DNA from: Ascidiella aspersa | Taxonomy: Eukaryota | Length of the DNA stretch: 64,000 nucleotides | Direction of reading: 5' to 3' | NCBI GenBank assembly: GCA_963924565.1 | Contig: OZ004614.1 | Span: 18,972,001-19,036,000 of the forward strand | Part shown: in pieces, positions 15,348-57,771 of the stretch | Layout of the letters: each line of letters opens with the position of its first letter | How positions within the stretch are numbered: the stretch's first letter is position 1 | The notes under the pieces: model-generated | The model's input: only the letters and a program-made list of their open reading frames with translations | Told to the model about the DNA's origin: nothing | Databases searched by the model: none | Position numbers and translations under genes: made by a program

Positions 15348-16522
15348 ATGGAAAGCCGAATAATTTTATTTGCTTTGCTTGTGGTCACGTGCATGTCAAT
15401 AAGTGAAGGTAAGTTTTTATTGCCTTATAACTGTGAAAGATTTTTAGAGTCAATAAAGTGATTTAACACTGTTGCTTAATATTTCTAAACTTGTTGGAAG
15501 ATCGGGTGTTGTGTGGAAAAATAAATTGCTGCGCCGCAATTGGTTTTGTGTGAATTCATGCTTTACCTCTTGGTTTAAGGTAGACGACATCAACGAGGCA
15601 GATTTGTTATTCGGTGCATTCAAACCTACTGCAGTAGAACATGGCTATCATCGGGTTATACTTGCCAATACGCCAGACGTAAGGACGTTTGTTTTATTAT
15701 GTATATACGTTGTTTAACAAACGTTTTCGACGCATAATTGTTGGCAGTAATGTCGGTGATAGACTGGAGTAGACGTTAAATAAATTGCCAAAATGTTTTC
15801 TCTGTCTGTAACTTTACATGTTGCTACAAGCCTACAGCAGCAAACCTATTCTGTTGACGTCAATGACTTGACTTAAGTGCACTTAGGTTACCGCTTCTAA
15901 ATAAGTTTGCTTAACTTTAGTCTTTTGAACAGATGAGGTGGTTTGAACTGATTTATCCTCGTCAATCAGTTTTTATTTTAATAAATCAAGGAAATTATTC
16001 TAATTTTCCAAATAATAAAATTAGCTTTCTTTATGTTGCGTTTTTTCTATATTTTTAGTTTGTTTTTTGCAGTTTTTTTTTGCGAAAAGTTCAATTATTA
16101 ACAGTTGTTAATCTACTTTTTATCAATTTCGATTTTCTGATCGAATCGCTCCGTTAAATCGGAAATCATGGCGCAAATGCCATATTTGAGATCGGCACTG
16201 ATACCACATTAGTATCGGACGAGTAACGATAGTACCACTTGGCATTGGAAGTAGGTTCGATCCAATATTGTCGAGCATTTCTACTCGAAAATGGATGTGG
16301 CATACATTTTTGATAAAACCTTTCAACAGATTAAAATAATTCGCCGTTGATCCAAAAAAACATTTAGTCAGGTTATTGCGAACTCGTATTAATCTTATCC
16401 ACCATGTGCTGAGCAAATTTTATGTTTTTGCAGATCCTGTTCCCTGCTTTCACTGCCAGTACTTTGTGTGCAGACGTGTTAAATCGTGTCAATCGATTTT
16501 TCGCCATCTTTCCTTCTGCTGA
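15348..16522 (+). CDS. Secreted cationic 8-Cys peptide, copy A (82 aa, 3 coding exons)
   Basis: Exons 15348-15408, 15580-15678, 16434-16522; GT-AG, phases 1/1. Translation MESRIILFALLVVTCMSISEG-RRHQRGRFVIRCIQTYCSRTWLSSGYTCQYARHPVPCFHCQYFVCRRVKSCQSIFRHLSFC*. TATATA at ~15255, AATAAA at 16761. Frame confirmed by the paralog at 54771-57771. Confidence 0.9.
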
Positions 16523-18036
16523 ATTTTTGTGCTACCACAAGCTGCTTAATCCGCAAGCCGTTTCAGCTCCTGTACCAAAGAGTTTTTTTACACTTTACCC
16601 AACATTGATACATTACAGTGAATAACTTAACTAGCATTCTGCGTATAACGATCGTTTCAATCAAAGGTCGTTTGTCACCAACTTTTTGCCAGCAAGTTCT
16701 TTCTTTCTTGCGCCTTGATTTGTAAATACAATTTCCAAATACAAAATTTTAACTTTTAGCAATAAAGATTGGCTTTTTTGTAAAATCAGCTTAAGCGTAG
16801 TCAATTTGCTTGAACGTGTATCACAAGGGTGGAATATATATCTTCATTTGTCTTGTTATAAAAATAAAAAAGGCTATACCGATAATTCATTAAAACATCC
16901 AAATAATATCGTTTTCCACATTATTGTACAATATCTATTCATGAGGGTGGAAATGCAGTTTATCTAATAAGCTGTTGCTGCAAAGTTGTTTTAGTGGAGG
17001 GGTTCCCAAACCTTTTTTACATCTTAGCCCCCTATGAAAAATTTGAGGAATCAATGCCTCCATATTTTTTTCAACGTTTTAAAAAATTAAGACGCTTCAT
17101 TTTAAATGATAATGCTGTTAACCTGTAGTTAGTTTAGAATAATAAAATGATATAAATACAACACCAGGAACGTGCAGTCATGGGAGGCAGGAGAGGCACT
17201 GCCTCAGCTGTCAACATCTGGCAAAGCAAAAGATCAAGCAAAAGTTATATAACTTATATTTAGGTTTCTATACCTAAATCGCGCTTTATTTTTTTCTTCT
17301 ATTTCTGTTGGTTTTTTCTTCTATTTTCTGACGCGGTCAAAATCATTAAAATACGCGAAGAGAGGCAGCGCCAAGCCGTGCCTCTCTTCACAAAAGTGCC
17401 ATACACTGCATTATGCGTGCCTTTTTGTTTCGCAAATTCTCTCGGAAAACATGATTTACGATTTAACTATGATTTGAGGCATGCCTCAATTGTGAGTTGT
17501 GACGTCCAAGCTATAAAACTTTTCTTCGTTCCGCTTGAATGGCCGCATAGTACGTATACATTGACTTCTTGTAGTGTAAAGCTCTAAAGTTAAAGTCATA
17601 ATTAAAGGCAGACCTGTTGCAAATTTAAACGTTTTGCATCAGACGACTGGACAATAAAAAAATAACACGCAACTTTCAAAGAGATTAGTAAAAAAGGAGT
17701 GGATGTGTGGCTGCCATAGGCGTAGCCAGGGGGCCATGGCCACCCGAAAATTTATAAATATTGTACTCTTAATAATAATTTGTTTTGTAGATTTTATGAG
17801 CAGTTGCCTACCACAACAGTCGATCACAAGCATGCCACACCTTCAATTGTCATTCACTGTTACGTCATAAACGATGTAGTCATTATTACGTTTGCTATAT
17901 TAATGTAGTTTAACTACTTTTTAATGATTTTTTTGCTCTCTGAATGGGTTTTGAGTGTTTTTTTTAATTTTTATTAGTACGATACCGATTTTTGTGGTTG
18001 TTAAAAAAAACTGGACTCGAAAAATTGTGTGCCTTA

Positions 18037-54770: not shown

Positions 54771-57700
54771 TCAGCAGGATATTCCGTTGCCAAATATCAC
54801 TTGGCACGATCTGGCCTGGCGACAAACTTCGTATTGGCAATGATAGCAGGGCAGGGGATCTGCAAAAAACAAATGCAATACCATTAAATCAATACGACTG
54901 AAAAACACGATAAGGTCTATCGATTTTTGCAACTGATTAAACGTTCACACCTACAATCAAAAAAATTTGAGAAAAAAGGTCAACTACAACCTGCGTTTGG
55001 CGACAAATTGCGCGGATGTGTCAGGATCTGCTTGATAAACTTTCGTGATATGACACATTAGATAACCACTAATTGTGCTGCTTTGAATCAGCGCGCCAAA
55101 CTACCAGGCGTCCCTACACATTGTGGGTACAAGCGAATTTTATATACGCCGCTCGTTACCTGGCAGACCTTTAAGATGTGTATTCAAAGTCCGTTTAAAC
55201 TATAATAAAACGCGTGTCGTCTAATGCCTTGAACAAGGGTCGGAAAATTTGTTCTCTGTAATAAATTCCTACTAACAATTTGGCGATAAAACGTGTGGCT
55301 TTTAAAGCATTTTATTATGATAACTCTCAATTAAGGACAGATCCTGGATTTTTACGCAAAGGAAAATAAGTCAAATTATACTTAAAAAGGCATCGCTGCC
55401 CGAAGTGCGACGAAAATAGAGTTTTTTGAGGTTTAATTTGGTAAAGCTTTATTTCGGAAGGAGACGTGACGCATTGTGTACGCTGAAAAAATACAAATAT
55501 TGTTCAGGTTGTTGCTATTATATGTCCATCATAAACGATGGAATGAATCCGCAAAAAAGCGAAAAAAGTTGGCGAAACTTTTATTTTGAAGAGTTCCATG
55601 CTACGCATTATTTCCACTAAGAGTGTTGCCAAGATTTTGGGCTGGGAAAAGCTACTCTAAACGCAAACTTCACAGGAAAATAAGGCTGTTTTACGCATTA
55701 AGATATTTTTGTATTTAAGCAGAGTAAAAAAGCTGAATTATATATTTGACTTGTCATCGTGCCTAATTTGCAAAAGAAGTCGCGGGCTTGATGAATTTTA
55801 CATTGGCTGCTGACCGGACCGGATCCGATCCGACTCGCGGGCCTTGATATTATACATCATTGTATTTTTAAGTGGCAAAGGGTTGACCCTTCAAGGTAAA
55901 TGACATATTCTAAGAGTGCATCAACAAATATATGAATTTGTCTTTTGTACTGCTATTTGTACACATTGCTAAGCGTACACCAAACATACGACTCACCGTG
56001 ACGCATTTGCAGCAACCGGTGCTAAAGCCCACCACGTATACATGTATAGTAATACCGGTTATTAAGGTTTTGCATTTGGGTAAATAAATCCAGTTTTCTG
56101 TTCTATTGGTTAACAAAAACTTTAAATGTTTAGGAAGCAGCTTATGACCGGCACCGCTATTTAAAACGAAATTAAGTATATGAAGTAACCGACTTGTTTT
56201 TGCCGTATTTTTTATGTTTTACAAACTTCACCCTCGGCAAACAGTTGATCTCGGTTTTAACAGGTAGAATTTTACGAAACTTAATTCTGTAAACTTTGTA
56301 AGGAGGAGCTGCTCAAAAATATAAAATCATAAAAAAAAATTAGGTCAAAAAATTACGTCATAGTGTGATGTCAAAAAGCTTGTGCAAATTCAGCAAAGAA
56401 ATGACGTACTATAAAAAATAATCGCATTTATTTAGCTGGTATATGAGAAAACGTTTAATTTGGACGATTAAAGCTGATCTCACAGCTATATTGCTGCAAA
56501 TAACATATACAAATTGTACTCTGTGATTAAGCCCTTGTATATAGTCACACAAGCCAACCATAACGTCACATATTCTCCACCGGATGCTGTTGGAAAGGCT
56601 ACGTAAATCAGTCAGTTTGGTCAAAGTTTTCGGACAAGCAAGGCCAGGCTGGAAAAGCAATAGCTTGCGGCGAGGTTCGAACTCACGATCTCCAGTCAAA
56701 CTGGGACGTGTGTTAAATTACAAATGTTCACAAGGCGAAAAGTTTGCATTAACGAACTAGTTTATATATTTTTTGTCAAGACTATGCTATACCATGTATC
56801 ATGCAAAACGGTGTGATGAAACACATTTGAAACTGGCAAAGTTTTTTTTTTAAATTACATAGCTTAATTTACAAGAAAACATATTATTGAAACGGCAATA
56901 AAATACTTTTGATGCTGTGTTTATATTGTGTGGGGAGCGGGGAAATGCCTTTATCTTGGTTCACATAAAACTTTTATTTTAAGAAGCCTATATTATGTAG
57001 TTAAAATGGCAAATTCGGCAACCAAAAAAGCGATTTAGCAAGCTTCTTTTAGCGTAAGACAGTGTTTATCAATCTTTTTCGCGACCTGAATACTAAGCGT
57101 ATGTACTACAGCGAAACTTTGGCGAGAGAATTCCCCCTTTTAATTGTTTTACTAAGCTTGAAGTGAACGAAGAAGAAATAATACAGTTGCTTTAATAAAT
57201 TCAAATTTATTAAATACGGGTCAGGTGTTTCGTTTGTGTGTTTTCACCAATTTGTTAAATTTCGGAGAAATCTTGGCCAGAACCAATGTCGATTAATTTA
57301 ACTGCGTGCACTTCCTCAGTCGTCGACCCAACCAAGTCAAACTATCATGGTTGATTTAAAGGTTAAAGCAACGTTAGCAAAACAGAACTTCTCTTACGTC
57401 GGGCGTAACGGCAAGGGTATCCAGTCTGAAGCCATCTACGGCTGCAGTAGGTTTGAAGGCACCGATAAAAGAACTTGTCTCGGTTGTACTTCCTGCCTAA
57501 AACGTACAAAAGTACGATAATACATATGACAAATTAACAGCCATTCATAAGTATACTTCTTGTATTAAAGAAATCCGAGAATTTGTCAGCAGGTATTTAT
57601 CGAATTATGTCAAATAAAAACGTATTTTAATAGTTTACGTTTGTAGCCGATGTTTTGAAACACAATCACTTTGGTGCTGTATTCGTAAAACCACATTTGT

Positions 57701-57771
57701 TATTACTTACCTTCACTTAGCGAGATGCAAACCAATAAGATTGACCACAACAAAACCGTCCGGATCTTCAT
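54771..57771 (-). CDS. Secreted cationic 8-Cys peptide, diverged inverted paralog D (82 aa)
   Basis: Exons 57771-57711, 57496-57398, 54859-54771 (61/99/89 nt, same sizes and phases as copy A), strong GTAAG donors and TAG/CAG acceptors. MKIRTVLLWSILLVCISLSEG-RKYNRDKFFYRCLQTYCSRRWLQTGYPCRYARHPLPCYHCQYEVCRQARSCQVIFGNGISC*. 36/61 mature residues identical to A without gaps; all 8 Cys kept. Confidence 0.9.
56530..56700 (-). mobile_element. tRNA-derived SINE fragment in intron 2 of paralog D
   Basis: Minus strand gatcgtgagttcgaacctcgccgcaagctattgcttttccagcctg: B box plus similarity to the body after the 11063 head. Confidence 0.6.

Follow-up and report, generated by a model that had tools for sequence, protein, structure and literature searches.

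Six genes for cationic eight-cysteine peptides, predicted to be secreted, form a conserved family in the ascidian Ascidiella aspersa and may serve innate defence

The window analysed here, a stretch of 64,000 nucleotides from the ascidian Ascidiella aspersa (contig OZ004614.1 of assembly GCA_963924565.1, positions 18,972,001 to 19,036,000), carries four intact three-exon genes, A, B and C on the forward strand and D on the reverse strand, which encode small cationic peptides with eight cysteines (Table 1). All eight introns are bounded by GT and AG and lie in phase 1, exon 1 measures 61 or 67 nt, exon 2 99 nt and exon 3 89 nt, and the reading frames are open and terminate in Cys followed by the stop codon. 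Exon 1 encodes a hydrophobic leader ending in Ser-Glu-Gly, while the predicted mature peptide comprises 61 residues whose cysteines are separated by 4, 10, 8, 2, 4, 5 and 9 residues. The open reading frame (ORF) track misses these genes because none of their exons is among its 47 ORFs of at least 90 aa. A previous sequence-only reading of the window had proposed four three-exon genes with these starts and strands, overlooked by the ORF track, together with the SEG-ending leader, the 61-residue mature part, the eight-cysteine spacing and the cysteine end, and all of these features were reproduced.

Net charge, with His left out of the count, is +11 for A, +12 for B, +12 for C and +9 for D, and the mature peptides of A and D are identical at 59% of positions (36 of 61). 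A comparison of A with B revealed a single substitution among the 99 nt of exon 2 (15584 A>G, synonymous at Arg) and two among the 89 nt of exon 3, both of them replacements that together add one to the charge. Across exons 2 and 3, 3 of 188 bases have changed, as against 64 of 918 in the introns (Fisher p = 0.002). The charges, the A/D identity and the disparity between exon 2 and the introns had likewise been stated in the sequence-only reading, and recalculation bore them out.

Genome-wide, the family amounts to six genes encoding five distinct peptides, counts that are lower bounds, with the two paralogs E and F lying outside the window on other contigs. Searches with four different exons each led to the same six places, and a codon pattern for the PCxHCQY motif occurred at exactly these six places in the genome, with none for the control. 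The exon plan, intron phases and cysteine spacing of E and F are those of A-D. Among the lineages A/B/C, D, E and F, pairwise identity is 35-41 of 61 residues (57-67%), synonymous divergence (dS) ranges from 1.1 to saturation, and the ratio of nonsynonymous to synonymous divergence (dN/dS) is 0.09-0.27 (Nei-Gojobori method; dS undefined for one pair). The proportion of nonsynonymous differences (pN) is below that of synonymous differences (pS) in all six pairs among A, D, E and F (p 2e-4 to 4e-8). Across the five peptides 28 of 61 positions are invariant, 20 of which are not cysteines; an aromatic residue is kept in eight columns and a basic residue at positions 1, 7, 11, 19, 32 and 46. Conservation among A, D, E and F is concentrated in the core from Cys1 to Cys7, where 24 of 41 positions are invariant, while the basic N-terminal tail (2 of 11 invariant) and the C-terminal segment (2 of 9) vary. 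Since dS exceeds 1 while dN/dS lies at 0.09-0.27, the family is old and under strong purifying selection, and the pattern, far beyond chance, shows that it is functional and protein-coding. The gene models as a whole indicate a family that is real, old, conserved and larger than the window shows.

Table 1. Exons of the six family genes and the tandem units carrying three of them; positions refer to the window, except for genes E and F.
Feature	Position	Strand	Remarks
Gene A, exon 1	15348-15408	+	Start codon; predicted signal peptide with SEG at its end; followed by a phase-1 intron
Gene A, exon 2	15580-15678	+	Cys1-Cys3; cationic N-terminal part
Gene A, exon 3	16434-16522	+	Cys4-Cys8 and stop; AATAAA 238 nt downstream
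Gene B, exon 1	29307-29373	+	6-nt in-frame insertion relative to A
Gene B, exon 2	29543-29641	+	
Gene B, exon 3	30403-30491	+	Two replacements near the C-terminus relative to A
Gene C, exon 1	41341-41407	+	Same sequence as B
Gene C, exon 2	41577-41675	+	Same sequence as B
Gene C, exon 3	42436-42524	+	Same sequence as B
Gene D, exon 1	57711-57771	-	Predicted signal peptide ending SEG
Gene D, exon 2	57398-57496	-	
Gene D, exon 3	54771-54859	-	
Gene E	Contig C5, locus L013: 3593-3656 / 4269-4367 / 6524-6612	+	Charge +9
Gene F	Contig C3, locus L014: 6202-6142 / 5581-5483 / 2022-1931	-	Charge +8; one residue past the last Cys
Three tandem segmental units carrying A, B and C	14192..47855	+	About 12-14 kb each

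The leaders of the six precursors are 21-23 aa long; their most hydrophobic 9-residue stretches have a hydropathy of 2.9-3.9, and positions -3 and -1 are occupied by small residues in every case. Signal peptides were judged by hydropathy and by the -3/-1 rule applied by hand. The mature peptides have 61-62 residues, 7.3-7.6 kDa, an isoelectric point (pI) of 9.3-10.3, a charge of +8 to +12 and 9-12 aromatic residues, and two invariant His flank the C-x2-C pair. The precursor encodes no acidic pro-piece, the terminal Gly that would signal amidation is absent from all five peptides, and none of the five contains CC, C-x-C or C-x3-C. The leader predicts secretion, and the eight invariant cysteines predict four disulfides; as exon 2 supplies three cysteines and exon 3 five, at least one disulfide would link the two halves. 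These halves are not alike beyond chance (p 0.25-0.40), and the idea of an internal repeat was rejected. The leader, small size, positive charge and even, conserved number of cysteines are those of the functional class of cationic cysteine-rich host-defence peptides.

All sequence searches outside the genome itself used single exons as queries of 30-40 residues, so remote homology could lie below their power. Pfam returned no family at a meaningful expectation value (E) for any of nine exon sequences, the DUF4720 match of one standing at E 0.09. Among PDB sequences, exon 2 had no match, and the sole match of exon 3, at E 0.23, covered 17 residues of the TNF-receptor EDAR; at this chance level the relationship was rejected. 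A word-seeded search of 5.8 billion proteins, in which exon-2 and exon-3 alignments padded with about 12 intron-derived residues were compared with proteins of at least 80 and at least 75 aa, respectively, left 0 of 25 candidates for exon 2 and 0 of 56 for exon 3 at E <=10; as a control, the exon of a neighbouring F-spondin gene retrieved Ciona, Clavelina and Styela proteins from the same library. A profile scan of 1.84 billion representatives, made with exon 3 only, gave no match at E 0.001, and the ESM Atlas gave nothing usable for exon 2 and a best value of 0.77 for exon 3. In metagenome contigs 61 pattern matches were obtained, 8 of which passed tblastn; the exon-3 cysteine pattern was found in none of the 8, and the matches were rejected as chance. 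The structural model of exon 2 alone, at a mean predicted local distance difference test score (pLDDT) of 60.7, offers a weak hint of helices at 5-16 and 19-23, and Foldseek found no match to it at E <=10; the exon-3 model (mean pLDDT 47.5) was unusable.

Published work was compared from excerpts of the cited papers. No description of the family was found in the literature searched, which was mostly open-access and excluded supplementary peptide tables such as those of Ciona screens, and the excerpts of two papers, one on tunicate adhesive peptides (PMC13079984) and PMC12466427, contained nothing similar. The earlier suggestion of a possibly undescribed family holds within the reach of exon-level queries, given the lack of any match in Pfam, PDB sequences, large protein sets, the ESM Atlas, metagenomes and review passages. 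The protein sets searched thus contain no annotated close relative. The family may be confined to a lineage whose proteomes have yet to be annotated, or its orthologs may be too diverged or themselves unannotated.

Peptides of the CS-alpha-beta type are marked by a C-x3-C on the helix and a C-x-C on the strand, while WAP/crustins, hepcidin, beta-defensins and big defensins have an adjacent Cys-Cys pair. Unlike CS-alpha-beta defensins, drosomycin and macins, all five peptides lack both signature motifs and have no Pfam match, and unlike WAP/crustins, hepcidin, beta- and big defensins, none of the five contains CC and none has a Pfam match at the exon level. With C-C, C-x-C and C-x3-C all absent, the signatures that mark CS-alpha-beta defensins, drosomycin, macins, WAP/crustins, hepcidin and beta-defensins are ruled out; the sequence-only reading had not recognised the spacing as that of a defensin, macin or WAP fold. 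The CS-alpha-beta fold packs a helix on a two-stranded sheet, whereas the low-confidence models of the single exons showed no more than short helices. Kazal and Kunitz domains are six-cysteine frameworks with a spacing different from that of this family, and their Pfam profiles gave no match, a result of low power as each query carried only 3 or 5 of the 8 cysteines. In other respects the family resembles the eight-cysteine CS-alpha-beta antimicrobial peptides (AMPs), namely mollusc and nematode defensins, drosomycin and macins (PMC10506718), being cationic, of similar size, predicted to be secreted and predicted to hold four disulfides.

Closer by host are the turgencins A and B of Synoicum turgens, Lys-rich, C-terminally amidated peptides of 35-36 aa with six cysteines connected 1-6, 2-5 and 3-4, the cysteines of turgencin A being spaced 3, 4, 8, 2 and 3 (PMC7024374). 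Like them, the present peptides are ascidian, cationic, cysteine-rich, free of adjacent cysteines and predicted to be partly helical, and C-x8-C-x2-C is common to both. Unlike them, the family has eight cysteines in 61-62 aa, is rich in Arg and aromatic residues and is spaced 4, 10, 8, 2, 4, 5 and 9; the turgencin motifs CXMAC and KKXGG are absent from its translations, as is an amidation signal. The sequence-only reading had seen a loose likeness to turgencin A, but only the 8,2 spacing pair is common, while the number of cysteines and amidation differ, and on this comparison the link should be dropped. St-CRP-1 and -2, also from Synoicum turgens, are likewise ascidian and cysteine-rich and have moderate antibacterial activity of their own, but, unlike this family, they are neutral, amidated peptides of 18-19 aa with six cysteines (PMC13208793). 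MgCRP-I of Mytilus shares with the family that it is lineage-restricted, short, predicted to be secreted, mostly cationic, cysteine-rich and found from sequence alone; it has, however, six cysteines, a pre-pro-peptide and a hypervariable mature region under positive selection (PMC4558851), whereas eight cysteines, no pro-piece and purifying selection are found here. Vanabins of Ascidia and Ciona are similarly ascidian, basic, disulfide-rich and helical, but carry 16-18 cysteines (PMC9486056) instead of eight, and a genome search with PF11437 (Vanabin-2) gave 2 matches, on contig C3 near 25.48 Mb, neither at these genes. As far as searched, the cysteine framework appears unmatched and the peptides would belong to none of the families tested, although they would be host-defence-peptide-like if a role in defence holds.

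Peptides of 7.3-7.6 kDa and pI 9.3-10.3, encoded by a small, recently expanding gene family in a filter feeder, are most plausibly innate-defence effectors. We put the chances about even that the family encodes cationic eight-cysteine peptides of this antimicrobial kind. Cleavage by signal peptidase would fall after the Gly of S/C-E/Q-G and directly release the mature peptide, because neither an acidic pro-piece nor an amidation signal is encoded. The eight invariant cysteines would form four disulfides, the six conserved basic positions would attract the peptide to anionic microbial surfaces, and the eight conserved aromatic positions would make a core and a binding face. Drawn by its charge, the peptide would first be captured on microbial envelopes and would then bind a specific conserved surface molecule, the weakest step of the scheme. 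Because the non-cysteine residues are well kept and amphipathicity does not exceed that of shuffles, such specific binding of a conserved microbial target seems more likely than detergent-like membrane lysis. A fuller version, in which an old ascidian defence family has a new, largely helical four-disulfide fold and binds one conserved microbial target through an invariant aromatic/His/Arg face, is put forward tentatively, with a probability well below even.

A defence role is favoured by the recent tandem expansion, with its two charge-raising replacements between A and B, and by the turgencins as a precedent for cationic cysteine-rich AMPs in ascidians (PMC7024374). An in-silico AMP screen of the Ciona genome removed cysteine-containing sequences (PMC7387483), so that such peptides could have been passed over, and insect AMP genes show little adaptive divergence (PMC4874389), which makes purifying selection compatible with an AMP. 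Several observations weigh on the other side. The mature peptide, with 28 of 61 positions invariant and 20 of these not cysteines, is strongly conserved, unlike hypervariable mature regions such as that of MgCRP-I, and this leaves room for non-defence roles. MgCRP-I itself, although secreted, cationic and cysteine-rich, proved inactive against microbes, fungi and insects and was not cytotoxic (PMC4558851). The best 11-residue helical hydrophobic moment (0.61-0.71) was matched by 38-60% of 2000 shuffles for each of the five peptides, and linear amphipathicity was rejected. Additionally, a promoter scan with 11 motifs placed no NF-kB-like site within 1.5 kb upstream of the five genes scanned, a weak test with about 0.6 sites expected for each; four promoters together had 25 C/EBP-like sites where 16 would be expected (p 0.025 uncorrected), which is not significant over 11 tests.

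The conservation that sits uneasily with an AMP would suit a secreted signalling ligand, a mini-protein similar to hormones, cytokines or gamete-recognition factors that would bind a host receptor through its conserved face and be held on sulfated glycans by its charge. Strong purifying selection, the 20 invariant non-cysteine positions and the retention of paralogs on three contigs all fit such a ligand, the cluster also contains a gene for a prohormone-like precursor, and the sole PDB sequence match, albeit at chance level, is to a receptor. However, a charge of +8 to +12 and recent tandem amplification would suit bulk effectors better than hormones, and the Pfam growth-factor and hormone families were unmatched at the exon level, so that a ligand is unlikely, though to be taken seriously. 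Somewhat more doubtful is a peptide with a structural or surface role in the tunic, mucus net or adhesive, whose aromatic residues, Arg and His would bind cellulose, chitin, sulfated glycans or metal. The 9-12 aromatic residues, the eight conserved aromatic columns and the two invariant His around C-x2-C are in keeping with this role. GH6 in animals is a tunicate trait, and the genome contains a GH6 match above the Pfam cut-off, consistent with a host that makes cellulose; it also has the two vanabin-profile matches. Together with the similarity of the neighbouring F-spondin exon to Ciona proteins, these matches mark the host as an ascidian, probably a phlebobranch. Yet the peptides contain no repeats or low-complexity tracts, the halves again showing no internal repeat, and neither the vanabin profile nor the Pfam carbohydrate-binding families matched them.

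A small disulfide-rich inhibitor of proteases or other enzymes in the haemolymph is improbable. Size, the even number of cysteines and invariant basic residues beside cysteines (for example at 19 and 46) would suit a trypsin-type reactive site, but Pfam gave no Kazal, Kunitz, WAP or antistasin match at the exon level; moreover, inhibitor paralogs usually vary at the reactive loop, whereas the Cys1-Cys7 core is the most conserved part of this family. Slimmer still are the prospects of a toxin directed at the cells or ion channels of animals, for use against predators or fouling organisms. Many toxins are indeed small, cationic, disulfide-rich peptides that are secreted, but this family lacks a pro-region, comprises only five distinct peptides and evolves under purifying, not diversifying, selection, and no toxin family was matched in Pfam or PDB sequences at the exon level. 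It is hardly credible that the exons arose by chance or have decayed and that the copies are mere assembly duplicates: the identical exons of B and C might come from a single locus assembled twice, but exon lengths, phases, splice sites and open frames are preserved in six genes on three contigs although synonymous sites are near saturation.

The tunicate section of a 2025 review of AMPs describes mostly linear helical peptides, single-disulfide dimers and the six-cysteine turgencins, with no eight-cysteine family in that section (PMC11767717), and big defensins are reported absent from tunicates in the excerpt of another source (PMC7203481). With its unmatched spacing, a conserved eight-cysteine family would bring a new scaffold into the immunity of invertebrate chordates. 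Should the fuller version with a new fold and a specific microbial target be true, no antimicrobial scaffold with eight cysteines would have come from an invertebrate chordate before, and the peptides would offer a salt-tolerant lead that acts on a specific target; if the peptides are instead ligands or tunic components, a new tunicate secreted protein would be gained. Until a function is shown, the family is one more orphan cysteine-rich peptide family; its five natural variants of 61-62 residues are defined and cheap to test.

Genes A, B and C each lie in one of the tandem segmental units. The A unit matches the other two at about 91-95%, while the B and C units are 98.6% alike over 11 kb and their genes are identical across all exons. 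Given this near-identity, gene C may have arisen by very recent duplication, or it may be the second haplotype, left uncollapsed and placed in tandem by the assembly. Genomic contigs of one sequencing run at gene A are unspliced and carry both A-type and B-type exon variants, although this run may be the source sample itself and hence not independent. Upstream of A, the segment 15117-15284 includes a TATA-like element at -93; B and C lack this segment in their upstream regions, and the core promoter of A therefore differs from theirs. Intron 2 of A, B and C contains a high-copy short repeat (about 16050-16250 in A; summed contig depth up to ~95,000), probably an element like a miniature inverted-repeat transposable element or a short interspersed nuclear element, and a related element lies near 4066-4143.

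Other genes accompany the family. On the forward strand, 48844-50580 is a single-exon ORF of 578 codons encoding a hydrophobic leader followed by 42 acidic peptides of about 12 residues, each beginning with Ala/Ser-Trp-Tyr-Asp and separated by single Arg, with a TATA-like box about 80 nt upstream. Its only Pfam match is to an implausible phage family, and its layout suggests a precursor of neuropeptides or a prohormone, or else a secreted repeat protein rich in Tyr and Trp, possibly undescribed. Two 3' fragments of it (24430-24846 and 36546-36887, forward strand), without start or leader, lie in the tandem duplicate units. A further multi-exon gene begins at 62195 on the forward strand (exons near 62195-62255, 62679-62797, 63263-63352 and 63809-63940, limits approximate), and its paralog in L015 starts at 4361 on the forward strand, the two being in tandem. 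Both encode a hydrophobic leader, a very short Cys/His/Arg-rich peptide, Gly-Lys-Arg and an acidic cysteine-containing region, a layout that presumably resembles the ascidian haemocyte peptide precursors with their amidation site and acidic C-terminal pro-region; none of the six exons of the pair has a Pfam match. Just upstream of the window, the F-spondin gene (L016, 423-5860, reverse strand) contains Reeler and Spondin_N exons, and its exon is 78-80% identical to Ciona proteins and 70% identical to those of Clavelina and Styela.

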